13,071 bases of DNA from Aulosira sp. ZfuVER01. Lineage in GTDB: Bacteria > Cyanobacteriota > Cyanobacteriia > Cyanobacteriales > Nostocaceae. Shown piece after piece: positions 1 to 13,071 of this stretch. Positions within the stretch are counted from its first letter, which is position 1. Each line of letters opens with the position of its first letter. A model generated the notes under the pieces. The model had not been told where the DNA came from. It did no database searches and worked only from the letters and a program-made list of their open reading frames with translations. The translations under genes were made by a program, and so were the position numbers. The DNA lies in NCBI GenBank assembly GCA_034530615.2, contig JAVRCV020000014.1, positions 1 through 13,071 of the forward strand, read 5' to 3'.

Positions 1-94
1 TCAACTCAGCAGTCTGCCTGGGGAATTTGGACAACTGGTCAACTTGCAAACCCTCGACCTCAGGAGTAATCAACTCAGCAGTCTGCCTGGGGAA
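1..94 (+). repeat. LRR-coding direct repeat (69-nt period)
   Basis: tcaactcagcagtctgcctggggaa occurs identically at 1-25 and 70-94. Confidence 0.9.
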
Positions 95-2791
95 ATCAGG
101 AAATTAGCAAATCTGACAGAGCTAGATCTTCGGAGAAATCCACTGCCCATTCCACCTGAGATTTTAGGGAGCAAGAATTTATCAAGAGATCCAGGTGATG
201 TCAATGAAATTCTCGATTTCTATTTTCGAGTACAAGATCCCAAAGAAACTGAACCCCTCTACGAAGCTAAATTTTTAATTGTTGGCGAAGGGGGAGCAGG
301 TAAAACTTCTTTAGCTAATAAAATTCAAAATGAAAGTTACGAACTTCAGCCGGATGAAAAATCAACGGAAGGCATTGAGGTGATTCGCTGGCACTTCACC
401 CAAGCAAATGGCAAAGATTTTCGCGTTAACATCTGGGACTTTGGCGGTCAAGAAATTTACCACCAAACCCATCAGTTTTTCCTCACTGAACGTTCTCTTT
501 ATGCCTTAGTCGCTGATACTCGCAAAGAAAACACAGATTTTTACTGGTGGTTGAAGGTCGTTGAACTCTTAAGTGACAATAGTCCAGTTCTGATTATTAA
601 AAACGAAAAACAAGGCCGTCAATGCGAAGTTAATTATCACCAATTGCGGGGTGAATTCACCAATTTAAAAGAAGCCTTACCAACCAACCTAGCTACTAAT
701 CGTGGTTTACCAGAAATTAAACAAGCGATTCAAGACTACATCAGCAGACTTCCCCACGTTGGTACACTTTTACCAAAACTCTGGGTAAGAGTCCGTTCTG
801 CTTTAGAAAACTATTCCCGCAACTACATTAACTTTTACGAATACGAAAACCTTTGCCGAGTTAATAATTTAACTGACCGTCAAGATATGCTGCGGCTGAG
901 TCGCTATCTGCACGACCTCGGCGTTTGTCTACATTTTCAAGATGATTCTACACTGAAACACTATGTCATCCTCAAACCAGAATGGGGAACTACTGCTGTC
1001 TACAAAGTGTTAGACAATAAAAACGTCAAGGAAAATTTAGGCTGTTTTACCAAGGATAATCTTAAAGATATTTGGAAAAATTGCGAATATGCTGATATGC
1101 GAGATGAACTGCTGCAACTGATGATGCGGTTTAAACTTTGCTACCCAATTCCTAATAGTCCTGGTAACTATATTGCACCGCAACTACTCGATATTGAGCA
1201 ACCTGCCTATAACTGGGACGAAACTAATAACCTAATTTTACGCTACGAATACATGTTCATGCCCAAGGGTATTATCACTCGCTTCATTGTAGAAACACAC
1301 CCTTGGATTGAACAACAAAAACTCGTTTGGCGAAGCGGTGTTGTTCTCGACAAAGACCAAACTCGTGTGGAAGTTATTGAAAATTATAATCTTAAAGAAA
1401 TTAAAATCCGTGTAGAAGGAAACCGCAAGAAAGAATTGCTAGCAGTCGTCACTCACGAACTAGATAAAATCCATAAATCTTTTGAGCGATTGCAGTATGA
1501 CACTCTTGTTCCTTGCAACTGCAAAGAATGTGAAGGAAGCCGAGAACCTTATTCCTACGAATTAGATAAATTATATAAGCGTTTAAAAGCTGGTCGGTAT
1601 CAGATTGAGTGTGAGAACAGCTATCAAATGGTAGATGTTCGCAGGTTAATTGATGATGTTAATCTACAATCCCAATTTGAACCACTACAACAAGAATTGT
1701 CTCAAGCCAGAGATAAATCATTAAAAAAACAACCGATGATAAATTACCATGATTTCCAAATATTAGTAACAGCAGACCGCAAAATTCGCGCTTCCTCAGA
1801 ACAAGGCGATGAATGGGGCGAATTGCGCTTAGAAATGAACAGAATTAAGCTGTCATTAAAACTAATTGATTCTCGCCAAACAGATACCGATTTGCTAAAA
1901 GCCCTAGGTGGCGAACTCTACCAAGCGCTTTTCCCTATAGATATTCGCGGTCAATTACGGGCTACAATTGCAGGCGCACAAGCGAATGATTACGAGGTAC
2001 GCTTGCGCCTAGTATTTGATTCCCCCGAACTAGCCGCCCTACCTTGGGAATTTCTCTATGATGAGGCTACTAAAACTTTCCTTGCAAACAACACTCAAAC
2101 CGTACTCTCGCGTTATGTTGACGTTCCCCTCCAAAAGCGCGACCTGAAAGCCGCAAGCCTACCGCTGAAAGTTTTGCTAGTCATCTCCAGCCCAACTAAC
2201 TTACCTCAATTAGATGTTGCTGAGGAAGAACGCCTCATCCGTGACGCACTGAAAAAACACATAGATGCAGGCCAAATAGAGTTAGATGTGCTACCAGAAG
2301 CCACCATTCGCAACATTAACCAAAAGCTACGCGAAAAGCCATACAATGTTTTCCACTTCATCGGTCACGGTAAATTTGATAACAACAAAGGCTGTATTGC
2401 CCTAGTAGATACCGATGGCAAATACAAACTCTTGGATGATGAGGGTTTTGCCAATTTCTTTTTAGGCAACCGCAGCTTAGGGTTAGCTGTGCTAAATTCC
2501 TGTCAAGGTGCGACGGTATCATCTAACCAAGTATTTGCAGGTATAGCACCTAACCTAGTGCGCCGAGGAATTCCCGCTGTAGTCGCCATGCAATATGAAA
2601 TCCTCGACACCACCGCCAAGCTGTTTGCTGATGAATTTTACCGCACTCTCGCCCTAGGCTGGCCTGTAGATGCAGCTATGCAAACTACCCGCAACGCCAT
2701 TTCGATGGAAGTGGGCTTAGATAAACCTGACTTTGCGACACCAGTGCTGTATATGCGCGCTAAGGATGGAATAATTTTGAGTGGGTTGTGA
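2..2791 (+). CDS. Roco-family protein: LRR - Roc GTPase - COR - CHAT (caspase-like) protease; 5' end lies outside the window
   Basis: Frame is open from base 2 (QLSSLPGEFGQLVNLQTLDLRSNQLSSLPGEI..., 23-aa LRRs). P-loop GEGGAGKTS, switch I STEGI, G3 WDFGGQE, COR motifs (YLHDLGVCLHF, LKPEW), CxCxxC cluster, C-terminal CHAT dyad motifs FHFIGHG and LNSCQG. Confidence 0.93.
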   Translation, partial: QLSSLPGEFGQLVNLQTLDLRSNQLSSLPGEIRKLANLTELDLRRNPLPIPPEILGSKNLSRDPGDVNEILDFYFRVQDPKETEPLYEAKFLIVGEGGAGKTSLANKIQNESYELQPDEKSTEGIEVIRWHFTQANGKDFRVNIWDFGGQEIYHQTHQFFLTERSLYALVADTRKENTDFYWWLKVVELLSDNSPVLIIKNEKQGRQCEVNYHQLRGEFTNLKEALPTNLATNRGLPEIKQAIQDYISRLPHVGTLLPKLWVRVRSALENYSRNYINFYEYENLCRVNNLTDRQDMLRLSRYLHDLGVCLHFQDDSTLKHYVILKPEWGTTAVYKVLDNKNVKENLGCFTKDNLKDIWKNCEYADMRDELLQLMMRFKLCYPIPNSPGNYIAPQLLDIEQPAYNWDETNNLILRYEYMFMPKGIITRFIVETHPWIEQQKLVWRSGVVLDKDQTRVEVIENYNLKEIKIRVEGNRKKELLAVVTHELDKIHKSFERLQYDTLVPCNCKECEGSREPYSYELDKLYKRLKAGRYQIECENSYQMVDVRRLIDDVNLQSQFEPLQQELSQARDKSLKKQPMINYHDFQILVTADRKIRASSEQGDEWGELRLEMNRIKLSLKLIDSRQTDTDLLKALGGELYQALFPIDIRGQLRATIAGAQANDYEVRLRLVFDSPELAALPWEFLYDEATKTFLANNTQTVLSRYVDVPLQKRDLKAASLPLKVLLVISSPTNLPQLDVAEEERLIRDALKKHIDAGQIELDVLPEATIRNINQKLREKPYNVFHFIGHGKFDNNKGCIALVDTDGKYKLLDDEGFANFFLGNRSLGLAVLNSCQGATVSSNQVFAGIAPNLVRRGIPAVVAMQYEILDTTAKLFADEFYRTLALGWPVDAAMQTTRNAISMEVGLDKPDFATPVLYMRAKDGIILSGL

Positions 2792-2809
2792 AGGTAGAAG
2801 GGAAAAGGA

Positions 2810-2897
2810 GGACAAGGGGGACAAGGGGGACAAGATAGAAATAACAAATAACTATTGCCCAATGCCCAATGCCCAATGCCCAATGCCCAATGCCAAA
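2810..2897. repeat. Cyanobacterial short tandem repeats (STRR-type) between convergent genes
   Basis: ggacaaggg x~3 (2810-2834), aaataac x2, tgcccaa x5 plus tgccaaa (2856-2897). Confidence 0.9.
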
Positions 2898-2907
2898 TAT
2901 CCTGTAT

Positions 2908-3393
2908 TCACCACAATTTAATTAGTTGCTTGCCTTCTAAAAATAAATCAAATCTGTGCATATCTTTCTCCGATTCAAAAGCTGCTACTGGTAAGTAGTG
3001 AAATTGAGCTTTTGTCATATATAAAAAGTAATATTCACCCTTTTTGACAGCTTTAGTAAAATGCTCATACCTAAGCTTAGTGATACTCCCATCTTCAAAA
3101 AATATCGCAAAGAAGTCTTCATCCATTTCGCAATATCTACTTTGAAAGTTTAACTCAGAAGTTCTCCCTTGCAGACGCAACCAAAGCGGTACAGAGAGAA
3201 TATAAGCAATAAAACCCAAGCAATACAGCAACCACCAACTAAATTCCTTCTGGATTATAGAAAGGATAATATTTACCACTGCCAAAACTGAAAAGATAAT
3301 TAAGGTTAATTTCATGCGCTTGTAATAATCAACCGCAATAATTGCTCTTAATTCTTTGGGAGATACTTGAAATTGCTTAGTTCTAATGAGCAT
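2908..3393 (-). CDS. YcxB-like membrane protein
   Basis: 161 aa. Two N-terminal hydrophobic helices, then a beta-rich C-terminal domain ending in ...YYFLYMTKAQFHYLPVAAFESEKD, typical of YcxB-family proteins. Confidence 0.75.
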   Translation of the reverse strand: MLIRTKQFQVSPKELRAIIAVDYYKRMKLTLIIFSVLAVVNIILSIIQKEFSWWLLYCLGFIAYILSVPLWLRLQGRTSELNFQSRYCEMDEDFFAIFFEDGSITKLRYEHFTKAVKKGEYYFLYMTKAQFHYLPVAAFESEKDMHRFDLFLEGKQLIKLW

Positions 3394-4913: not shown

Positions 4914-4925
4914 ATCTATTCACTC
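4914..4925 (-). other. Putative element end / recombination junction (left-donor GAGT - core GAAT - right-target AGAT)
   Basis: Minus strand reads GAGT-GAAT-AGAT. GAGUGAAU is in the 5' arm of the second RNA loop (6481..6474). AUCUAUUC, its complement on the right side, is in the 3' arm of the first loop (6532..6525). The site is ~85 bp after the recombinase stop. Confidence 0.75.
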
Positions 4926-4946
4926 TAATAAGTGTAGCGAGATTTT

Positions 4947-4980
4947 AAAAGCCCCCCAACCTGTAAAAATTATTGGGGGG
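4947..4980 (-). terminator. Intrinsic terminator after the IS110 recombinase
   Basis: ccccccaa (4952-4959) / ttgggggg (4973-4980) stem followed by CUUUU on the minus strand. Confidence 0.6.
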
Positions 4981-5006
4981 AAATTTTAATAGTTAATGGT
5001 CATTGG

Positions 5007-6374
5007 TCATTTGGCGATCGCGTTCACCAGGTGACTAAACAGCAGGTTAGCAACTTTAGCCATTAATTTACCCTGCAAGTGTTTACCGTTAAGTAATTGT
5101 CTGCCAGATTCATCAGTAAAGTCTTTTAACTTGCTACGGTACTCAAGCATCGTAGCGGCGGTGTCATTATCAGGCAATCTTTCGGTTTCTACTTGGCACA
5201 GAACGTACTGCCAAAACGACATCCTGCACAACGCCGAACCGCTTTTTACTTCAATTAACTCATCACCGGACTGCTCAAGTACTGTACCCATACCTAACCG
5301 CATTTTGAAAGTATCGCGTGAGCGATTGCGTTTAACTCGCTTTACATCCCCAGGCGAACGCTTAACCACAGTTTGACCATCCTGCCGATGCTTCTCTACC
5401 CGTTTAACTTCCCTGACTTCATATTCAATTAGTGGTCTTCCATTACTCAAGAATGCTTCAAACGGGTAAATTCGAGTTAGCAGCCGGGCACGTACACGCA
5501 AGCCAAAACCAAATTTGTCAAAAATCTGGTTGTATTGCTTGAAGCACTCATCATCAAGTAGAGTTTTAATCTCAGCTTCAATCCGCTGCTCGCACAATTC
5601 AATGTCACACAACCAATCACCGTGTAGCCTCAAAATAGGGTCAATGGTAATACCGTAATGGTTAGCAGCTGACGATTCATATTTTGCTGTTAGTGCTTTC
5701 CACGCTTGAGACGATACCTCAAACTGCCTTTCGGCTAACCAACCCCATAATGGAGGTACATTTCCCAATTTGGTGCTTTTAGATTTCACATGGGCAACTT
5801 CTGGAAACTGCCAAGCTAAAACTTGTCTAGCATAGTTAACTATTGGGCTTTGTACCCGGTTCAAATGTTCAAGCTGCTGGCACAGTTCCCTTAGCCGATC
5901 GATTGGTTCGCTTCGGTGCATCAGGAAATATCTAGTGTTTAATTCACCATCTTCGGTGTGGTGTTCTACATCAAGCGGGTAAGCGGCCATAGCCAAAGCA
6001 TCAGCAGCATCAGATTTATTTGGCAGATTTTTACCGCCACGATAGCGGCGTAACTCTATATGCCCAACCCACAAAATCTTAATACCTAAACTGTCAATTA
6101 TTTTTGCCCACAGGCGGGAATAATGATTCCCTGTAGGCTCCATAATTGCAACATTAGCCTGACTTTCCTGAATAAATTTAGCAAAATCAAAAGCTGATTT
6201 CTGCTTCTTTTTAACATCAGGATTGCTATAGAAAACCGGATAATGACTTGATGCTTTATTCCTCGTTTTTTCCCAGTAGGATTTTAACCCACCCTTGGGA
6301 TAAGATGAGAGAACATGAACTGTGACTGATGCTTTAGAAACATCAATACCCAAAGTTTTTAATTCAATTGTCAT
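5007..6374 (-). CDS. IS110-family DEDD recombinase/transposase (bridge recombinase), ~455 aa
   Basis: RuvC-like DEDD motifs LGIDVSK, MEPTG, KSDAADA; coiled-coil middle region; C-terminal LGMGTVLEQSG (catalytic Ser motif) followed by GSALCR. ATG at 6374 is preferred over TTG at 6392. Confidence 0.9.
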   Translation of the reverse strand: MTIELKTLGIDVSKASVTVHVLSSYPKGGLKSYWEKTRNKASSHYPVFYSNPDVKKKQKSAFDFAKFIQESQANVAIMEPTGNHYSRLWAKIIDSLGIKILWVGHIELRRYRGGKNLPNKSDAADALAMAAYPLDVEHHTEDGELNTRYFLMHRSEPIDRLRELCQQLEHLNRVQSPIVNYARQVLAWQFPEVAHVKSKSTKLGNVPPLWGWLAERQFEVSSQAWKALTAKYESSAANHYGITIDPILRLHGDWLCDIELCEQRIEAEIKTLLDDECFKQYNQIFDKFGFGLRVRARLLTRIYPFEAFLSNGRPLIEYEVREVKRVEKHRQDGQTVVKRSPGDVKRVKRNRSRDTFKMRLGMGTVLEQSGDELIEVKSGSALCRMSFWQYVLCQVETERLPDNDTAATMLEYRSKLKDFTDESGRQLLNGKHLQGKLMAKVANLLFSHLVNAIAK

Positions 6375-6412
6375 GGTTCTGTTAGTAAACAAAGGTACAT
6401 TTAGTTGTAGTT

Positions 6413-6618
6413 AAAAACCCAGTTTCAAAGCGCACGAATCACCCTAACGCCCCACATCCTAAGCAGGGGCGCGATTCACTCCTAAACGAACTGGGAAGCC
6501 ATACAACTCCGGGAAGCTGCGCTTGAATAGATGAACGCCTCACGCTAGAGAGCGCAATTCTATTACAACGCCGCATTCCCGATGTGTGATGGTGCGAACT
6601 GCTTTGGACACAATCCGC
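6413..6618 (-). ncRNA. Putative bridge RNA (target-binding stem-loop 6592..6499; donor-binding stem-loop 6495..6418)
   Basis: Directly upstream of the IS110 gene. Two long stem-loops with internal loops; G-U pairs favour the minus strand. Four CGUU-preceded segments end in GAAU or AUUC, and two of them match the element junction. Ends in GGG-UUUUU. Confidence 0.8.
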
Positions 6619-6679
6619 GACTCTGGCATCTGCCAGAGTTTCGGCTACTGTGTCAGGTAGCCTCATCAGGCGGTTATTG
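6607..6679 (-). ncRNA. Type I hammerhead ribozyme; predicted cleavage between 6619 and 6618 (GUC|)
   Basis: CCGC-CUGAUGA-GGCUAC[CUGACACA]GUAGCC-GAAA-CUCUGGC[AGAU]GCCAGAG-UC|GCGG. All core nucleotides are present and stems I/II/III pair perfectly. Loop II GACACA can pair with downstream UGUGUC (6612..6607). Confidence 0.95.
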
Positions 6680-6871
6680 TTTACTTAATTTCCTAACTTG
6701 TTGAAGTAACTCGATATTTTTTTCAATTCCAAATCTGACCGGAGACAACTCACCATCAGGTAGTCTGTCTATTAACTCTTGTAAGTTTAGACAGGTTGAT
6801 GTTAGGTGATAAGTCAAAATATCAACTGTCCTTTCTAGTGCTTGAATTCTTTGTGCTACGTCTGAATCCAT
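6674..6871 (-). CDS. Small hypothetical coiled-coil protein (65 aa)
   Basis: ATG preceded by AAGGA, amphipathic helical sequence; the UAA stop abuts hammerhead stem I. Confidence 0.7.
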   Translation of the reverse strand: MDSDVAQRIQALERTVDILTYHLTSTCLNLQELIDRLPDGELSPVRFGIEKNIELLQQVRKLSKQ

Positions 6872-6973
6872 TATTTATCCTTATAAACTGAACTTGGTAA
6901 TTGAATCATTCCCGAACCTATCCCACTAATACCAAAAATGTGATAATCTGCTTTTCAAATCACAAAGGGTGTA

Positions 6974-7258
6974 TCACAGTATGGCTGGGCGGTTTGAAGG
7001 ATTAACAGACTTAAAATGGAGGCTGTTTGAAGATATATTTCCAGAAGATTTATTTTTGAGGTAATCTTTGATAGTTTGCTCGATTTGTTCAGGACTTAAT
7101 TTATCGCACTGGGCATTGGCTTCTTTACTGATTCTGGAAACCCAGTAATTCAGTGGTTGACCTGTTAACTCACACAGATATCTAACTGCAATGCCTAGTG
7201 AAAGACTATTGGTTATGTAGTCTTCTTTGCCCATCAAGAATTTGGATTTGTTTGTCAT
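6974..7258 (-). CDS. Hypothetical protein (94 aa), paralogous to the C-terminal half of 7255..7740
   Basis: ATGA overlap with the upstream gene; clear similarity to that gene's C-terminus. Confidence 0.8.
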   Translation of the reverse strand: MTNKSKFLMGKEDYITNSLSLGIAVRYLCELTGQPLNYWVSRISKEANAQCDKLSPEQIEQTIKDYLKNKSSGNISSNSLHFKSVNPSNRPAIL

Positions 7259-7740
7259 AACTTCTCTTTATGCCTCTCAACAACCATGAACGATGCATCG
7301 GATTCTTTGGCTTTGTTTGCAAAATAAGCACTGATTTGCTGTTCAATTTCTTCATTAGTTAAAGTTTCAAACTGTGCAGTCCCCTGTTTCCAAATTTGTT
7401 GTATCCAGAAATCAGGAGATTGACCTGTTAAGCTGGCAAGAAATTTAACTGCCAGTCCGCTAACCATGCTGTTAAGCACAAAGTCTCCCTTGTCCATCAA
7501 AAATTTAGATTTATCTGTGGACTCTTCGGGGATGGAAGGTGATGGTGCTTCTTCTAGGGCGGCGATAATGGCTGAGGCGTTTTCACCATAAAAAACTTGG
7601 GTGTCGCCATCACACCAGGTAACAATGATAATTCCTTCATTTTTGTCATCAATGACTTGCCGGATTTGAGCCAGATTTACCCAACCGGCGCTGGGGGTTT
7701 TGCAAGTAAACACGCTTTTGACTGATATTATGGTGTGCAT
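7255..7740 (-). CDS. Hypothetical two-domain protein (161 aa)
   Basis: ATG start, Pro/Ser/Glu linker (EEAPSPSIPEES), C-terminal domain duplicated in the next gene. Confidence 0.8.
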   Translation of the reverse strand: MHTIISVKSVFTCKTPSAGWVNLAQIRQVIDDKNEGIIIVTWCDGDTQVFYGENASAIIAALEEAPSPSIPEESTDKSKFLMDKGDFVLNSMVSGLAVKFLASLTGQSPDFWIQQIWKQGTAQFETLTNEEIEQQISAYFANKAKESDASFMVVERHKEKL

Positions 7741-7826
7741 GGTTCAGGCTTATCCAATGGCTAAGTTGGGTTGAGCTTTTGCGATCGCGTCCAATCTCCC
7801 AAAAAGCGCGATCGCAAAAAAATTGA

Positions 7827-8216
7827 CTAAAACCCGTCAGGGATACCGCTATCTGTGGCAGTATCCCCAGCTTCAAAAGGGATATCGTCTATGCTGGGTT
7901 CCTGCCCGGTTGAGTTATCTTGTGATGGTTGGAGTTTTTCTAGTTCAGCCTTGGTTTGTTCGAGTTTTGAAATCTCTCGCTTGAGGTTGTACACCTGGTC
8001 GTCTAGTTGGTTTCTTTTGGCTTCCAAGTCCAAAATCTCTTTTTGAAACTGCTTACCAATCTGGGAACGGATGTTACGCTCAACCAATTCCATTAGATGC
8101 AAAATTGCCTCATCCTCATCATCTCCTTGGGCAACTTCACCAAACAACTCTAGGTGCTTATTTTCGTAGTTCCCCAGGTTTAAAACCCGTTTGTAACTGA
8201 TGCTTTTAAGTTGCAT
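7827..8216 (-). CDS. Hypothetical coiled-coil protein with acidic DDIPF-containing tail (129 aa)
   Basis: N-terminal alpha/beta segment (LNLGNYE), heptad-rich middle, acidic tail. Confidence 0.8.
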   Translation of the reverse strand: MQLKSISYKRVLNLGNYENKHLELFGEVAQGDDEDEAILHLMELVERNIRSQIGKQFQKEILDLEAKRNQLDDQVYNLKREISKLEQTKAELEKLQPSQDNSTGQEPSIDDIPFEAGDTATDSGIPDGF

Positions 8217-8292
8217 AATTTACCCTGTACACGTTTCAAGTCTTTGAATCAAACGCGATCGCATTTTTGAAGTGCGATCGCAAAAAATTGAG

Positions 8293-8481
8293 TTATCCTT
8301 GAACCTCAACCGGTTGCTTGTCGAAAGCTACACAAAACAAGACACCAGGATTTAGCCTGCGTAAAATGCTCATATAAGATTCAGCGTCAGTTCGAGTGCG
8401 AAAACGATTAACGCAGACATTCTTAACTGTTGTTTCACAGCGAAAAACAGCCCACGGTTTAAGGTCAGCGCGATAAGTCAT
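8293..8481 (-). CDS. Small hypothetical protein (62 aa)
   Basis: MTY...PW...RFR.R.DA......LRRL.P...F...FD pattern, which I recall from small Nostocales hypothetical proteins; first clear gene of the leftward operon. Confidence 0.75.
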   Translation of the reverse strand: MTYRADLKPWAVFRCETTVKNVCVNRFRTRTDAESYMSILRRLNPGVLFCVAFDKQPVEVQG

Positions 8482-8615
8482 AATTTAATTTCCAATTTTT
8501 CAAAAAAGGCCAGCGTCAAGCTACACCAAGCTGACGCTGGTGTTCCATACGTTTGACTGACAGAAGAATGACTCCAGGTTGGAGGAAAGCGCCAGCTGTA
8601 ACACTGGCGAATCAT
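8478..8615 (-). CDS. Possible 45-aa leader ORF (MIRQCYSWRFPP...FFEKLEIKL), not in the ORF track
   Basis: Open frame whose TGA overlaps the ATG of 8293..8481 (ATGA); it spans a terminator-like hairpin. Confidence 0.3.
   Translation of the reverse strand: MIRQCYSWRFPPTWSHSSVSQTYGTPASAWCSLTLAFFEKLEIKL
8502..8540 (-). terminator. Terminator/attenuator in the leader of the leftward operon
   Basis: CCAGCGUCA-(13 nt)-UGACGCUGG-CC-UUUUUU on the minus strand, ~20 nt before the 62-aa gene. Confidence 0.6.
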
Positions 8616-8731
8616 GGTTTAATTTTGAATTCACAACTGAGTAGAGATTAGCGTCTAAATTTATACCTCCATAGAGACAGCATGACTGTGCAGCGCCGGG
8701 TGAAGGGAAAGCGCTATGTGATTGTTATGTG

Positions 8732-8800
8732 ACTGCGAACATTACATAGTTAACTGCGAACATTGCACAGTTAACTCCGATGATTACGCAGTTAACTCCG
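8732..8800. repeat. 21-bp tandem repeat (3 units plus a partial)
   Basis: actgcgaacattacatagtta / actgcgaacattgcacagtta / actccgatgattacgcagtta / actccg. Confidence 0.85.
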
Positions 8801-8938
8801 CGCCAATGACCAATAACTATTGACCATTGACTCTGGACTTTTGACTTAGGGTGTTTCCGCGCCGGGCACTTTGGCAAGTGGTGCGGGTGCTTGCTCCAGA
8901 ACAACACGCAAGGTTTAGGCGTGGGGGAGCTTGTTGTT

Positions 8939-9021
8939 TTGTTCTACCAAACAAGTTAATATTATATTGTTCTACGAAACCAGTCAACATTTCGTAGAAC
9001 AATATATTTTTTTTGTTCTAC
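8939..9021. promoter_or_regulatory. Operator array in the divergent promoter region (TTGTTCTAC x4, including a 15-bp perfect inverted repeat)
   Basis: TTGTTCTAC at 8939, 8967 and 9013, inverted at 8994-9002. tattgttctacgaaa (8965-8979) / tttcgtagaacaata (8990-9004). Immediately upstream of the RHH gene. Confidence 0.7.
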
Positions 9022-9035
9022 AATTGGAAAAAGTA

Positions 9036-9446
9036 ATGATAAAAGAGAATGCCGAGACCCAAGATATTAGCGGAAGATGCGATAAACGCATCAATCAGGA
9101 TCAGCCGAGCGGATTGGGAGAAGTTAGAGACGATAGCTCAATCAATAGGCTTAAAGAGCAAAGCGGATCTGCTGCGAGCGATTGCACAGGGGGAGATACG
9201 TATCGGGCAAATGTCGAATACGGAGACAGCCCTGCTGGGAAACTCCTAAGTCGTCTAGAGTTGTTGGAGAAAGCTTTTTATGGTTACGTGCATGGTCATC
9301 AAGAGCGACTCAAGACACGCTACAAAGAGAGTACAGAACTAGAATCTGCTTTCACAGAAGAATTACAAGTGATTAAGCAAGGGCTTCGTGATTTAGCGCA
9401 ACAAGTCGAAGACGACTCAGAATTAAACAACAATGAAAAACCATAA
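9036..9446 (+). CDS. Overlapping frame with C-terminal coiled-coil; expressed from ATG 9036 or by -1 frameshift from the RHH gene
   Basis: The part after 9240 (KLLSRLELLEKAFYGYV...LRDLAQQVE) looks like a real helical protein, while the part overlapping the RHH gene does not. G_GGA_AAC heptamer at 9237-9243. Confidence 0.6.
   Translation: MIKENAETQDISGRCDKRINQDQPSGLGEVRDDSSINRLKEQSGSAASDCTGGDTYRANVEYGDSPAGKLLSRLELLEKAFYGYVHGHQERLKTRYKESTELESAFTEELQVIKQGLRDLAQQVEDDSELNNNEKP
9049..9249 (+). CDS. Ribbon-helix-helix (CopG/Arc-like) DNA-binding protein
   Basis: MPRPK... then beta-strand ASIRIS, helix RADWEKLETIAQSIG, turn, helix SKADLLRAIAQG. Confidence 0.8.
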   Translation: MPRPKILAEDAINASIRISRADWEKLETIAQSIGLKSKADLLRAIAQGEIRIGQMSNTETALLGNS

Positions 9447-9479
9447 GCCGTCCTGCCTGCATGGGTGAGGGCGGTTTTT
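9447..9479 (+). terminator. Intrinsic terminator
   Basis: gccgtcct...agggcggt stem followed by a T-run, directly after the 9446 stop. Confidence 0.6.
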
Positions 9480-9537
9480 AATGGGCATCGCTCCTCACCT
9501 CAAAGTGCGATCGCCAATGACCAATGACAAATGACAA

Positions 9538-9804
9538 ATGACTAACCAAACCCAAGCCCAAATCGAAGCAGCCATTGAAACACTCAAGGATGCTAAAAAC
9601 GCCGCCATCACATCGCTATACGAATTTGTGGATTTTGTACGCACCATTGATTCTGAATTAACTCCCAGTGAAGCATTGATCATCACTGGATACGTATTGC
9701 ATGAATTACCAGAATTGTTTAAGAAAAATCCCGGTCTGGTAAATCAAATCCAAGAGATAGCAACAAAATTAAAACTCGAACGCTCAGATATTAGCAACAG
9801 CTAA
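9538..9804 (+). CDS. Hypothetical helical protein (88 aa)
   Basis: Co-oriented in the rightward cluster, protein-like composition; the start is embedded in atgacaa heptamer repeats. Confidence 0.75.
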   Translation: MTNQTQAQIEAAIETLKDAKNAAITSLYEFVDFVRTIDSELTPSEALIITGYVLHELPELFKKNPGLVNQIQEIATKLKLERSDISNS

Positions 9805-9893
9805 CAACCTGATTTTTAATACCTAAAAAATTGAAATGCCTCCTAGAGTTAGCAGCTACTAAGAGGCGATTGGATAAAATCTCTACTCTCATT

Positions 9894-10793
9894 ATGACAT
9901 TAAAAGCATCACAAACTCTGTCACTAAGGACAGAAAAAGAACTGGCATTTTTCCTAGAACAGAACACAATTCCATTGACTCAAGCACTATGGGAATGGAT
10001 AGCATTACAAGGAAAAATCGGTACACAAATAGAAATTGACCTCACGGACTTTGAGCAATTTGTCACTAAACACCGAGGTACAAAATTTGCTCGGTGGTGG
10101 TTGTTAAAACGCTTCAAATGGCTTATCCAACATAGAGTAATCCAAGTAATCAAAGAATTCAGTAGTACAGCTTACAGAATACTTTTAAGACCCTTTGATT
10201 GGTTAAAACCACGTAAAAAAAATTCGCAAAATCACTTGCAAAATCTCAACTCGACTTGCGATTTAACCACCTCAAACGAGCAATCAGCAAGGGACGGGGA
10301 GAACAACAACAACACTTATATTCCTAAGATATCGACTAGCGAACGCCAAGAGTTAAACAAGATACTCGAAATCATCAAGCTTTGCGAACAATATGGTTAT
10401 CAACCATCTGCACCAATTTTTGATTTTTCTATTGACGAACTCAAAGCAAGTTTAGAGCAATGGTCAAGTCAACAGTATGAGGAATTAGAAAGACGCTATG
10501 ACATCCTCAAACTGTGTGCTGAATATGAGATTTACTACCATCCCAACAAAGCAGGCACTCAAGAACTGTTTAATTACCCCATTGAAGAAATCGAATTAGC
10601 TCTAAAACACTTCATCAAAAGCGGTGGATTTGAAAAACGTGCCAACGGTAAACCAATTATTTCTAATCCCCAAGGTTGGTTAATTCGTTGCTTACAGCAA
10701 TCTTGGTGGGAACAAGTGACATTTGGCATTGAGCAATTTCTCAATGTCATGAATGCCTTTTTACCTAAGAACATCCCTAGGGATTATTCCTAA
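9894..10793 (+). CDS. Putative replication-initiator/replisome-organiser-like protein (~299 aa)
   Basis: N-terminal winged-helix-like region, low-complexity linker, internal ~45-aa duplication, C-terminal ISNPQGWLIRCL motif. ATG 9894 is preferred over TTG 9831. The function is inference. Confidence 0.6.
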   Translation: MTLKASQTLSLRTEKELAFFLEQNTIPLTQALWEWIALQGKIGTQIEIDLTDFEQFVTKHRGTKFARWWLLKRFKWLIQHRVIQVIKEFSSTAYRILLRPFDWLKPRKKNSQNHLQNLNSTCDLTTSNEQSARDGENNNNTYIPKISTSERQELNKILEIIKLCEQYGYQPSAPIFDFSIDELKASLEQWSSQQYEELERRYDILKLCAEYEIYYHPNKAGTQELFNYPIEEIELALKHFIKSGGFEKRANGKPIISNPQGWLIRCLQQSWWEQVTFGIEQFLNVMNAFLPKNIPRDYS

Positions 10794-10853
10794 AAGTTAG
10801 TTGAAAAAAATAAGCCGCAAAGCGCGGCTCCATCTACCTATCAAAGGAAAATT

Positions 10854-11054
10854 ATGCCAGATTCATCTTTACTATTCGACCGTCAGCAAATCGAGATTTT
10901 CAAAAACTGGATACGCCGCCGCTTCATAGCAGAAGCCGATTTTCAACAGATGCCAGTAGAATTTGCCCTGGCGTGGTCAGCTGCTCTCAAAGAATTGTCC
11001 CAAACGGTTGCTCATGAGATAGTTCCGTTTCACCGCCGCGGGGGTGAGTCATGA
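10854..11054 (+). CDS. Hypothetical protein (66 aa)
   Basis: AAGGA SD before the ATG; ATGA overlap with the next gene. Confidence 0.7.
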   Translation: MPDSSLLFDRQQIEIFKNWIRRRFIAEADFQQMPVEFALAWSAALKELSQTVAHEIVPFHRRGGES

Positions 11055-11710
11055 GTAAACAGCTAACTTTATTCGACTTGAGTGCGATTACTCCGCCAAC
11101 TACCCAGGTATATGACCCCGCTTGGGATGATGATACAGTTGATTCTCAAATTGCCAGTCAGGGAATTGATAATTCCTCCTCTACTCCTGAGTCACAGTCA
11201 CCACTTGCCCAGGAGTCTTTTTCTCATAACCGTTGGAATCCTGCTGATTTCGGGGAAGTGCCACACAAGGCAGACGGCGATCATCTGACAATTTTCTACG
11301 ATGACACCAACGAACCACCAGATCCAGATGATTATCAAAATCTCACCGATTATGAGCAAGCCTGGCGCGAGTGGCGATTACGTGTTGGGGCGCAAGTAGA
11401 GAGTGATACCCAACTAGACACCGTAGAATTGCTTGTTGGGGCGCAAGTAAATCGTGATACTAAAAAAGTTGCGCCCCAACACGATAAGCAAACTCATTGG
11501 GTAGAAAAGTACTGGGTGCAGCGGGAAGGAAACAAGTACTGGTACTATCGCTACTGCTGGATGACCGGGCGCAAAAAACACCGCCGCTACATTGGCTCAG
11601 TTGAAAGTGCGATCGCAAAAAATCGGAAATTGGAAGTTGAGAGTGCGATCGCGGATGGAGAATCCCCGGCTGAGATTGAAAATCTAATTCGCTCCTGGCG
11701 CAAGTCCTAA
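11051..11710 (+). CDS. Hypothetical mobile-element protein with acidic N-terminus and a basic/aromatic C-terminal beta domain (likely nucleic-acid binding)
   Basis: QLTLFD, EPPDPDDY...YEQAWREW and YWYYRYCW...KKHRRYIG motifs; translationally coupled to the previous gene. Confidence 0.8.
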   Translation: MSKQLTLFDLSAITPPTTQVYDPAWDDDTVDSQIASQGIDNSSSTPESQSPLAQESFSHNRWNPADFGEVPHKADGDHLTIFYDDTNEPPDPDDYQNLTDYEQAWREWRLRVGAQVESDTQLDTVELLVGAQVNRDTKKVAPQHDKQTHWVEKYWVQREGNKYWYYRYCWMTGRKKHRRYIGSVESAIAKNRKLEVESAIADGESPAEIENLIRSWRKS

Positions 11711-12016
11711 AGCCTGTGGATTCTCCTGTAACAACTTCTGCAACTTTCGCAACTCATCCCAGGTGCGAGAGTTAATATCAGGCTCCTTTGACTGTGGAGT
11801 TGCCCGATAATTTTCCTTTCGCCAGGTGATGTATCGGTCGATGGCATCTAATACTATCGCTGCATTGTCTGTTACAAGGCAATTACCCGCATCTAATTGC
11901 CGGGCATATTCTGTAATTGGAAGTTCCAAAACTTCTGGAACGCGAATAACGGTTGTTTTCCCATGCTTCCAACTGTTACCCCAAGTCGTGGTTCTGCGTC
12001 CGCCTTTACTACTCAT
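11684..12016 (-). CDS. Small putative DNA-binding protein (RHH-like; ~110 aa)
   Basis: MSSKGGRRTTTWGNSWKHGKTTVIRVPEVLELPITEYARQLD shows a strand-helix pattern. ATG 12016 is preferred over the ORF-track start. Confidence 0.65.
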   Translation of the reverse strand: MSSKGGRRTTTWGNSWKHGKTTVIRVPEVLELPITEYARQLDAGNCLVTDNAAIVLDAIDRYITWRKENYRATPQSKEPDINSRTWDELRKLQKLLQENPQALGLAPGAN

Positions 12017-12028
12017 GATTGCATCTCT

Positions 12029-12049
12029 ATTGCCTGTTACAAGGCAATT
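12029..12049. promoter_or_regulatory. Palindromic operator-like site, second copy at 11864-11884
   Basis: attgcct-gttaca-aggcaat-t; 20/21 identical to attgtctgttacaaggcaatt at 11864. Confidence 0.55.
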
Positions 12050-12123
12050 TATCATGAAAAATGCGATCGCACTTCTTGGGAATTGGGATGCTTCCAAAGT
12101 GCGATCGCGTAGCAAAAAGCAAA

Positions 12124-12297
12124 TTATGGGTCAATCCTAAGCGATGGCGGGAGTAAATCAGCCTCATATTCATCCCAAGCTTTGTCAGCGATACCTTCTA
12201 GAGATTTGGCTAGCACCCGGGGGTCGTCCATATCCCCATTCAGGATTTGTCCAATTAAATAACCAAGGGACAGTACCAAGTCAGTTTTGTTGATCAT
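12124..12297 (-). CDS. Small acidic hypothetical protein (57 aa; MINKTDLVLSLGYLIGQILNGD...LPPSLRIDP), not in the ORF track
   Basis: Its ATG overlaps the recombinase TGA (ATGA) and it fills the gap to the next gene. Confidence 0.7.
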   Translation of the reverse strand: MINKTDLVLSLGYLIGQILNGDMDDPRVLAKSLEGIADKAWDEYEADLLPPSLRIDP

Positions 12298-12875
12298 AAA
12301 GTGGCGATCGCCCCCTTAATCGCGTCTGGGTCAATGTCGATGTAACGCTCAAGTGCCTTAAAATCCCGATGCCCGGTGATTTTCTTAATTTTGTAGGGGT
12401 CAATGCCGTTGCGGTGCAGTTTTGTTATAAAACTCCGGCGGGTAGTGTGAGTGCTAATTCCCTTACTCGCAAAACTAGCTTTTTCACAAGCTCGTTTGAG
12501 AATGTCATAAGCATTGCGCCAAGTCATCGGCTTAGTTCCATCCCGTCCGGGAAACAGCCAAATGTTATCAGTCTCAGGTTTGTAAGATGCCAACGATTCA
12601 GCCAAAACTTGATGTACAGGCACTTGCCGCGTTTCACGACTGCCATCAGGCCGCTTTTTGCGAGTTGCAGCTCGAAAAGTAATGTATTCCCGTGGCTTGC
12701 CATCATCATCATAAACATCAGCAACTTTTAGCTGAATCAATGCCCCCCACCTTTCCCCCGTGTACCAGCCTAAATCCAAAAGTAATTTGTATTTTTGGGT
12801 TTGAATTTGACGACGTAATTTAGAATATTCCGTGTCAGTGATACAGGCGGCCTGTCCGTGACCGTCAACCTTCAT
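12294..12875 (-). CDS. Small tyrosine recombinase (catalytic domain only; resolvase-like)
   Basis: Catalytic residues TGERWG (R), RKK (K), HTTRR (HxxR), GHRD (H), ERYID (Y). 193 aa, no N-terminal core-binding domain. Confidence 0.93.
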   Translation of the reverse strand: MKVDGHGQAACITDTEYSKLRRQIQTQKYKLLLDLGWYTGERWGALIQLKVADVYDDDGKPREYITFRAATRKKRPDGSRETRQVPVHQVLAESLASYKPETDNIWLFPGRDGTKPMTWRNAYDILKRACEKASFASKGISTHTTRRSFITKLHRNGIDPYKIKKITGHRDFKALERYIDIDPDAIKGAIATL

Positions 12876-12895
12876 TCATTGACCATCCTTTTTCA

Positions 12896-12936
12896 ATGTT
12901 CCGCTTTTACCTCTGTTACAGGTAAAAGTGGAATAT
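12896..12936. promoter_or_regulatory. Inverted repeat with 7-bp spacer upstream of the tyrosine recombinase (candidate res/core site or operator)
   Basis: atgttccgcttttacct-ctgttac-aggtaaaagtggaatat, arms 15/17 complementary; related arms recur at 13009-13035. Confidence 0.6.
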
Positions 12937-13071
12937 CCAAGCTTTCAGCTATTACTAAAAGTAAGCACTATCCTAGTGCTGGCAAGCCTTTCACGTAATC
13001 AGTGAATCTTCTGCTTTTACATAAAACTGGAATATTTACTTTATTTTTGAAGCCGCATAAAACGGATTTAT

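Follow-up and report, generated by a model that had tools for sequence, protein, structure and literature searches.

A hammerhead ribozyme predicted to set the 5' end of a bridge RNA in large cyanobacterial mobile elements

A 13,071-nt stretch of the Aulosira sp. ZfuVER01 genome (positions 1 to 13,071 of contig JAVRCV020000014.1, assembly GCA_034530615.2; referred to as the window) carries part of a mobile element in which a type I hammerhead ribozyme, a bridge RNA leader and the gene of an IS110-type recombinase follow one another on the minus strand. Based on comparative sequence analysis, self-cleavage of the hammerhead after C6619 probably creates the 5' end of the bridge RNA from the transcript of the upstream operon, a reading to which we assign a probability of about 0.7. 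The arrangement was first proposed in a short note made from the letters of the window only (the original prediction).

Bridge recombinases are under development as programmable genome-rearrangement tools, and natural production of their guides is known only via the promoter that is rebuilt at the circle junction of IS110 elements (Durrant et al. 2024, PMC11208160). If true, a conserved ribozyme at the guide 5' end would represent a second, promoter-independent route to a guide, and this would rank among the few bacterial hammerheads with a specific, testable job, which is a standing question for this ribozyme class. The recombinase branch concerned is divergent, with a 3-nt GAA core, 6+3-nt guides and natural cargoes of ~15 kb. 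Pseudoknot-stabilised hammerheads and hammerheads near prophage integrases are already known (Perreault et al. 2011, PMC3088659). Our literature searches retrieved no description of a natural ribozyme-processed bridge RNA, and a preprint on the clustering of non-coding RNAs (10.64898/2026.10.21.760802) treats bridge RNAs and divergent hammerheads separately in the part of its text considered here.

Hammerhead structure and conservation

Read on the minus strand, the ribozyme region has the order UAA-CCGC-CUGAUGA-GGCUAC-CUGACACA-GUAGCC-GAAA-CUCUGGC-AGAU-GCCAGAG-UC-GCGG-AU-UGUGUC, in which the UAA (6676-6674) of a 65-codon open reading frame (ORF) directly adjoins stem I. A structural descriptor comprising the core, the A15.1-U16.1 pair, a non-G cleavage base and three stems matches once in the window and eight times in the whole 8.03-Mb genome, counting both strands. 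The window hammerhead has stems of 4/6/9 bp; the seven other genome matches are marginal (3-6/3-4/4-8 bp), and no second hammerhead was found in the window or the genome. All coordinates given in the original prediction for the core, stems I-III, the GAAA and the cleavage triplet are correct, and its placement of the ribozyme at the base after the upstream UAA agrees with a stem I that begins at 6673.

For comparison we took 80 related loci from reference genomes and built a covariance model from 15 strict matches, leaving the pseudoknot out of the model. A hammerhead on the gene strand is found in the window and in 71 of the 80 loci, where it lies 222-271 nt upstream of the recombinase start codon; 70 loci score at E <= 1e-6 and one (L076) at 8.5e-4. 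These comprise two truncated copies and 69 of the 70 loci in which both the gene start and the DNA upstream of it are preserved. The nine loci that lack a match comprise four that end at a contig edge and have no upstream DNA, four truncated genes and a single locus, L069, discussed below.

The helices of the hammerhead covary. Across the 71 aligned copies, pairing amounts to 97.1% for stems II and III together with the pseudoknot, with double-sided changes in 13 of their 20 pairs (11 of 14 for stems II and III), and none of 500 shuffles attains any of the five measures used, counts that overstate the significance because the sequences are mutually related. The 6-bp loop II pseudoknot GACACA/UGUGUC, which the original prediction had put forward as possible, is 96.8% paired across the aligned copies. 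Two of its pairs carry double changes, and one pair reads AU in 57 copies, CG in 5, UA in 4 and GC in 1. As the pseudoknot is absent from the covariance model, its compensatory changes provide an independent check. Stem I is CCGC/GCGG in 58 of 71 copies, with one compensatory ACGC/GCGU. The core reads CUGAUGA in 65 copies (64 by script and L074 by eye), CUGACGA in 2, CCGAUGA in 3 and UUGAUGA in 1, and GAAA is kept in every copy. Positions U16.1-H17 are UC in 66 copies, UU in 4 and UA in 1, such that H17 is retained in 71/71, and the A15.1-U16.1 pair is invariant in all 69 distinct rows. The conserved motif and the covariation-supported helices uphold the identification as a type I hammerhead.

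The spacer between A9 and stem II is 0 nt in 23 of the 71 copies, 1 nt (U) in 18 and 11-43 nt in ~30. The long inserts usually form two hairpins bearing the cyanobacterial HIP1 palindrome GCGATCGC; such a two-hairpin insert of 29-43 nt is present in 29 loci (L013-L016, L018, L021, L022 and others; L021 2654-2766 is an example), and in L007 and L041 this position is taken by one or two other hairpins.

The covariance model was also applied in the reverse direction. It matches 30 of 101 sampled genomes of the same family, and 28 of these 30 loci have a homologue of the recombinase immediately downstream in the same orientation. Most of these 28 recombinases are only 30-42% identical to the protein of the window, which indicates at the sequence level that the pairing of ribozyme and recombinase is old and specific. 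The co-occurrence of hammerheads with homologous IS110 genes that the original prediction had asked about thus holds both forward (69/70 loci) and in reverse (28/30).

The bridge RNA and the element ends

To characterize the leader we aligned 65 sequences from the cleavage site to the ATG (MAFFT, not structure-fitted). The leader consists of two similar modules of the form GCGUU-N6-GAAUY-GCGC-hairpin-GCGUU-N6-UUCRN-GCGC. Pairing in this two-stem-loop structure reaches 92.5%, and double-sided changes occur in 13 of its 31 pairs. The two N6 segments of module 1 are hypervariable, and those of module 2 are fixed within three subgroups. In the window, a U5 run follows the donor stem-loop. By its structure and its guide matches, the ~206 nt past the cleavage site is a bridge RNA; the original prediction had expected one of ~205 nt, and the two loops and the guides, which match the target and both element ends, agree with this view. 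The features of the window are collected in Table 1.

The guides were compared with the DNA they are expected to recognise. Exact matches of at least 8 nt between the right target guide and the right flank occur in 33 of 61 loci, compared to 10 of 298 mismatched controls, and 37 of 61 loci match with at most 2 mismatches in 10. The left donor guide varies together with the right end across the three subgroups: the right end, conserved 3' of the recombinase gene, is TAGAGT-GAA in two subgroups and TTACCCT-GAA in the third, and the first segment of module 2 (UAGGAGU or UAAGAGU, versus UACUCCU) fits the right end in each of them with one bulged RNA base. In this recombinase branch the target can be predicted from the RNA. 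In eight loci of one subgroup (L026, L030, L035, L055, L056, L067, L078, L082) the left target guide is CAGAGU-GAA, nearly the right end TAGAGT-GAA of other subgroups, and these loci may insert beside resident elements. The leader of a distant relative pair, L133/L135, also looks two-module by eye.

At the right end, two copies within one genome lose identity exactly after the GAA equivalent to that of the window. Past this point the host flank of the window continues to miaB, placing the insertion site upstream of this gene. At this site 4 of 14 same-genus genomes without the element read TTAATA-GAA-TAGATG/TAGAAA, and the target predicted from the RNA, GUAAUA-GAA-UAGAUGA, agrees with the empty site of the sister genomes in 15 of 16 bases. 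The left flank of the site is found at the start of contig C6, with 84% identity to the sister genome over 1,542 nt, and directly after it comes GAA-TCCCCACAAGAG. GGG[U]GAUUC, which is the second segment of module 2, pairs with GAATCCCC.

A complete element was delimited in Nostoc carneum (L007/L102), with a left junction TGGAGA-GAA-TCCCCAGAGAG and a right junction TTAGAGT-GAA-CATTAAT that lie 15.2 kb apart. The guides of the N. carneum RNA are AGGAGA-GAA and GAA-CAUUAAA, and the empty site of this element, CTAGAGA-GAA-CATTAAT, is present on Aulosira contig C52 (~50886-50894), with flanks 84-86% identical that overlap by 9 nt. In two elements other than that of the window, the left flank fits 8 of 9 guide bases and is then followed by TCCCC. 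For genome G001, the pattern formed by the L066 guide and TCCCC gives three matches at up to one mismatch, one of which has the correct strand and a distance of ~15.6 kb to the right end; this left end is placed by pattern match only, and a 14-mer with up to one mismatch is estimated to give ~3 chance matches per genome, with a probability of ~0.003 that one falls within 20 kb on the correct strand. The match of the left end to the right donor guide comprises only 8 bp with a bulge and is seen in three elements (contig C6, L102 and, by pattern, G001).

A search for the left end by guide complementarity within 2.7 kb upstream of the hammerhead found the left-flank word in 1 of 56 loci, compared to 15 of 541 controls; the left end lies much further upstream. 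Near five other loci, the left-end consensus pattern gave no correctly placed site and matched only two degenerate copies, indicating that left ends differ between subgroups. One of two degenerate loci of interest, L080 (2699-3735), combines a gene that has lost its first ~205 codons with a left-end-like GAATCCCCAGTGAGT placed 158 nt in front of the hammerhead; in the other, L051 (~1393), a left-end-like site lies 1.6 kb before a gene that has neither leader nor ribozyme. L064 and L065 of G001 are 15.9 kb apart and look like a tandem pair.

Three other left ends were considered and rejected. An element starting at the hammerhead (GAAT|AACCGCC) has a mismatched right donor guide, and the true left ends were found elsewhere. 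The motif GCGCGGAAACACCCTNA (window 8858-8841, minus strand) has a conserved left flank and a syntenic divergent gene beyond it. A break in homology between two copies of G001, ~2.97 kb upstream of the gene, has no donor guide match and is read as a mosaic boundary. As an observation in its own right, GCGCGGAAACACCCTAAG at window 8858-8841 (minus strand) resembles the complement of the right donor guide, sits between the operon and a divergent gene (8931-9446) and recurs 1.6-2.6 kb upstream of the hammerhead in seven loci.

Table 1. Features of the element in the 13,071-nt window
Feature	Position	Strand	Description
Type I hammerhead ribozyme	6615..6673	minus	core, stems, descriptor, covariance model; covariation
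Stem I	CCGC 6673-6670 / GCGG 6618-6615	minus	
Core CUGAUGA	6669-6663	minus	
Stem II	GGCUAC 6662-6657 / GUAGCC 6648-6643	minus	loop II 6656-6649
GAAA	6642-6639	minus	
Stem III	CUCUGGC 6638-6632 / GCCAGAG 6627-6621	minus	
U16.1 and C17	6620 and 6619	minus	predicted cleavage between 6619 and 6618
6-bp pseudoknot	loop II GACACA 6654-6649 / 3' partner UGUGUC 6612..6607	minus	
Bridge RNA, ~206 nt	6413..6618	minus	predicted, from 5'-OH G6618 to U5 run 6417-6413
Possible 5' hairpin	6618-6614 with 6598-6594	minus	
Target-binding stem-loop	6580-6511	minus	
Left target guide	6558..6566	minus	GUAAUA + GAA; 5' side of target loop; matches left flank TAATAGAA of empty site and contig C6 junction
Right target guide	6525..6533	minus	CAUCUA + UUC; 3' side of target loop; complement GAATAGATG matches right flank GAATAGATA at 4921-4913
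Donor-binding stem-loop	6495-6418	minus	
Left donor guide	6475..6484	minus	UAGGAGU + GAA; same sense as right end TTAGAGT-GAA, one bulged RNA base
Right donor guide	6436..6445	minus	AGGGUG + (A)UUC; pairs with left end GAATCCCC, 8 bp, one bulged U
IS110-type (bridge) recombinase, 455 aa	5007..6374	minus	NF051857, fold match
Right end of element	4919..4928	minus	TTAGAGT (4928-4922) + shared core GAA (4921-4919); host flank from 4918
Part of mobile element on window contig	4919..13071	minus	runs off contig end; left end at start of contig C6
65-codon ORF	6674..6871	minus	last small gene of upstream operon
Small ORF	6974-7258	minus	homologues upstream of hammerhead in 15 loci (tblastn)
Small ORF	7255-7740	minus	homologues upstream of hammerhead in 36 loci (tblastn)
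Small ORF	7827-8216	minus	homologues upstream of hammerhead in 37 loci (tblastn)
Small ORF	8293-8481	minus	homologues upstream of hammerhead in 42 loci (tblastn)

Proposed processing of the bridge RNA and alternatives

The position of the leader within the element bears on how it could be transcribed. From the left end to the start of the bridge RNA the distance is ~13.5 kb in L102 and at least 8 kb here, with oppositely oriented genes in between. Because the bridge RNA is 8-13 kb away from that end, with an operon in front of it, and the first genes are antisense, a promoter at the circle junction cannot drive it directly, in line with the suggestion of the original prediction that this promoter is replaced. 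A simple promoter scan of 7600-6620 on the minus strand gave no sigma-70-like site, which is weak evidence. The simplest reading is that the operon transcript carries the bridge RNA and that the hammerhead frees it.

According to this reading, the operon transcript would fold the hammerhead co-transcriptionally, with stems I-III and the 6-bp pseudoknot between loop II and the 3' tail, and the ribozyme would cut after C6619. The upstream mRNA would then depart with nearly all of the ribozyme and a 2',3'-cyclic phosphate, and the downstream RNA would start with a 5'-OH at GCGG. In the type I orientation only GCGG and the pseudoknot partner stay on the product. A nearby YCCGC may capture the released 4-nt stem I strand and so close a 5' hairpin on the bridge RNA; GCGGR can pair with YCCGC 17 nt downstream, and this candidate post-cleavage hairpin is 90.5% paired, which is suggestive. 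The U-run past the donor loop may set the 3' end, and read-through would yield the recombinase mRNA. In the freed RNA, the variable loop would pair with the target TAATA-GAA-TAGAT upstream of miaB, and the conserved loop with the joined element ends TTAGAGT-GAA-TCCCC. As put forward in the original prediction, recombination might in this way also be tied to operon induction.

Several observations weigh against ribozyme processing as the source of the bridge RNA 5' end. The window reaches no Rfam family at gathering scores, and in 20 related loci the Rfam hammerhead models have no match at their gathering thresholds; for the window, RF00008 scores 14.6 bits with a threshold of 48.5. An Rfam search had been suggested in the original prediction; in E-value mode RF03152 (RAGATH-1 hammerhead) aligns with the whole core at 27 bits (E = 0.021), below its gathering score of 56.3. 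The minimum-energy nested fold of the window is a competing structure that extends the pseudoknot helix (-35.5 kcal/mol, z = -6.4) and is more stable than any nested hammerhead fold; the covariation of stem II supports the hammerhead over this competitor. Catalysis is expected to be weaker in four copies with an altered core (CCGAUGA in 3, UUGAUGA in 1), and the inserts in ~30 of 71 copies occupy a position that contacts the catalytic core. In these insert-bearing copies the rest of the core is kept, which argues for continued selection. The changes in the 5' hairpin are mostly one-sided, and a promoter may lie inside the upstream ORF. Finally, L069, whose intact gene encodes a recombinase of 55% identity, has a bridge RNA and lacks a hammerhead. 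In this locus (2740-3000) the two-loop leader is preceded by a 15-bp GC-rich hairpin that follows the upstream ORF in the ribozyme's place and may be another route to the 5' end; judged from this sequence, the ribozyme is not obligatory for the family.

An active hammerhead could have been selected for general operon processing, i.e. to split the mRNA of the small genes from the recombinase and bridge RNA, for example for stability or dosage, with the exact 5' end being incidental or trimmed. The same role has been proposed for gene-flanking hammerheads in prophages, bacterial hammerheads are often intergenic near prophage integrases and ~40% of them have a pseudoknot (PMC3088659), the ribozyme here adjoins the upstream stop codon, and L069 does without it. 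However, the association is specific to the bridge RNA leader in both directions (69/70 and 28/30 loci), no second hammerhead was found in the window or genome, and homology between loci often starts within ~10 nt of the ribozyme 5' end. We thus regard this explanation as unlikely.

Somewhat less probable again is that the hammerhead is slow or inactive in many copies and that the leader is transcribed from a separate promoter, situated either within the upstream ORF or in the interval from the ribozyme to the target loop. The motif would then be kept for some other purpose at the RNA level, for instance to switch between its own fold and the competing structure. This would be consistent with the stability of the competing fold, with the large inserts beside A9 and with the four core variants. 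On the other hand, the catalytic nucleotides are kept even in copies with inserts (GAAA and H17 in 71/71), compensatory changes preserve stems II and III and the pseudoknot, and the promoter scan, for what little it weighs, found no site upstream of the ribozyme. Very improbable is a block that acts as DNA, as a binding site for the recombinase or a regulator or as a recombination hotspot at a module edge, and only resembles a hammerhead: inter-locus homology does begin at the block and the related motif GCGCGGAAACACCCTNA further upstream is unexplained, but the compensatory changes in three helices keep pairing rather than sequence, and a complete catalytic core would have to arise by chance.

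Ribozyme processing of the bridge RNA can be set against known systems. Like the pseudoknot-stabilised bacterial hammerheads (PMC3088659), the window ribozyme combines the consensus core and three helices with a 6-bp pseudoknot between stems I and II, and it is intergenic and set in a mobile element. Unlike them, it falls below every Rfam hammerhead threshold, is consistently coupled to a single downstream non-coding RNA and a single recombinase family, and in many copies carries 1-43-nt inserts between A9 and stem II. RF03152 is the best Rfam model, with all core positions and stems I-III aligned; apart from the bit score, the window differs from it in that the extra 5' hairpin of the model is not convincingly present.

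With the IS621/IS110 systems (PMC11208160; 8WT6/8WT9, 9T56) the element shares the recombinase fold, an RNA composed of a 5' hairpin and two internal-loop stem-loops, four guides for the left and right target and the left and right donor around a shared core, and discontiguous donor pairing, which has been reported for IS621 (Durrant et al. 2024, PMC11208160). In contrast, the protein has 455 aa and is 13-16% identical to those structures, the core is GAA and not CT, the element is a ~15-kb multi-gene unit compared to a 1-2-kb insertion sequence with only a recombinase and non-coding ends, and the bridge RNA, preceded by an operon and a ribozyme, is separated by 8-13 kb from the left end and not placed at a junction promoter.

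A further parallel comes from engineered constructs. In synthetic guide RNAs flanked by ribozymes, a hammerhead is put 5' of the guide. As there, a type I hammerhead would leave only the short stem I strand on the released guide; unlike the synthetic designs, the present arrangement is natural and conserved across a recombinase family. A hepatitis delta virus ribozyme is placed 3' of the bridge RNA in the methods of Durrant et al. (PMC11208160).

Inter-locus nucleotide homology that often begins at most ~10 nt from the ribozyme 5' end suggests that hammerhead, bridge RNA and recombinase may travel together as one module among elements that are otherwise mosaic. Taken further, this module might be a natural ribozyme-guide cassette, for which we see roughly even odds: an always-fused hammerhead would cut the guide from the operon transcript, its stem I strand might refold as the 5' hairpin of the guide, and the cassette, apparently exchanged as a unit, would license a divergent bridge recombinase as the integrase of ~15-kb, possibly virus-like elements composed almost wholly of genes that lack known families, the first large natural cargo of bridge recombination.

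The recombinase and the gene content of the element

The recombinase scores 459.5 bits with the NCBIfam model NF051857 "IS110 family transposase" (cut-off 180). Pfam PF01548 (25.1 bits, cut-off 29) and NF033542 (45.8 bits, cut-off 140) stay below threshold, PF02371 was not detected in the protein, and IS621 is only just picked up when a profile is run against PDB sequences (E = 0.51). We therefore compared the protein at the level of its fold. The AlphaFold (AF2) model has a predicted local distance difference test (pLDDT) score of 87.6, and the IS621 and ISCro4 recombinase-bridge RNA complexes make up the ten best-ranked structures in the fold search, with E-values of 7e-9 to 7e-8 and 13-16% identity over the full length. 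By predicted fold the recombinase is thus a very divergent bridge-type enzyme. Residues D11, E79, D122, D125 and S369 are invariant in 16 homologues and, we infer, represent the catalytic residues (RuvC-like DEDD and the Tnp serine). The gene is single-copy in the genome and has 329 homologues, mostly in Nostoc.

In two complete genomes the element measures about 15 kb; it is ~15.2 kb in L102, ~15.6 kb in G001 by coordinates and more than 8.2 kb here, where it covers window 4919-13071 and contig C6 1-50. Positions 7686-15212 of the ~15.2-kb L102 element of N. carneum are collinear with the reverse complement of the window. The leftmost 7.5 kb of that element (158-15392) are an operon pointing to the left end, followed by a 193-aa tyrosine-recombinase-like gene and a rightward operon whose final part consists of the hammerhead, the bridge RNA and, as last gene, the recombinase. 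Of the ~20 ORFs of the element, which include an 820-aa protein in L102, almost none has a Pfam or PHROG family, and none of the four small ORFs upstream of the ribozyme (6974..8481) belongs to a Pfam family. The leftward operon could be structural or virus-like; an exact match to the hammerhead/leader junction was not found in IMG/VR viral contigs. The upstream operon often runs up to the ribozyme. Among 61 loci, 26 have an ORF of 40 codons or more whose stop directly adjoins the hammerhead, 11 have one that ends at the UGA within CUGAUGA, and in 3 the stop falls within one base, a total of 40/61.

The 193-aa tyrosine-recombinase-like gene (PF00589, phrog_216) is conserved in the element (window 12294-12875, minus strand; L102 7878-8459), which thus carries a second, unrelated recombinase. 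An ORF near this gene (window 11051-11710, plus strand) gives an Arm-DNA-binding match that is weak. Past miaB, in the host DNA, window positions 44-2791 (plus strand) encode a 915-aa LRR-Roc-COR-CHAT protein, a large signalling or caspase-like architecture that is unrelated to the ribozyme.

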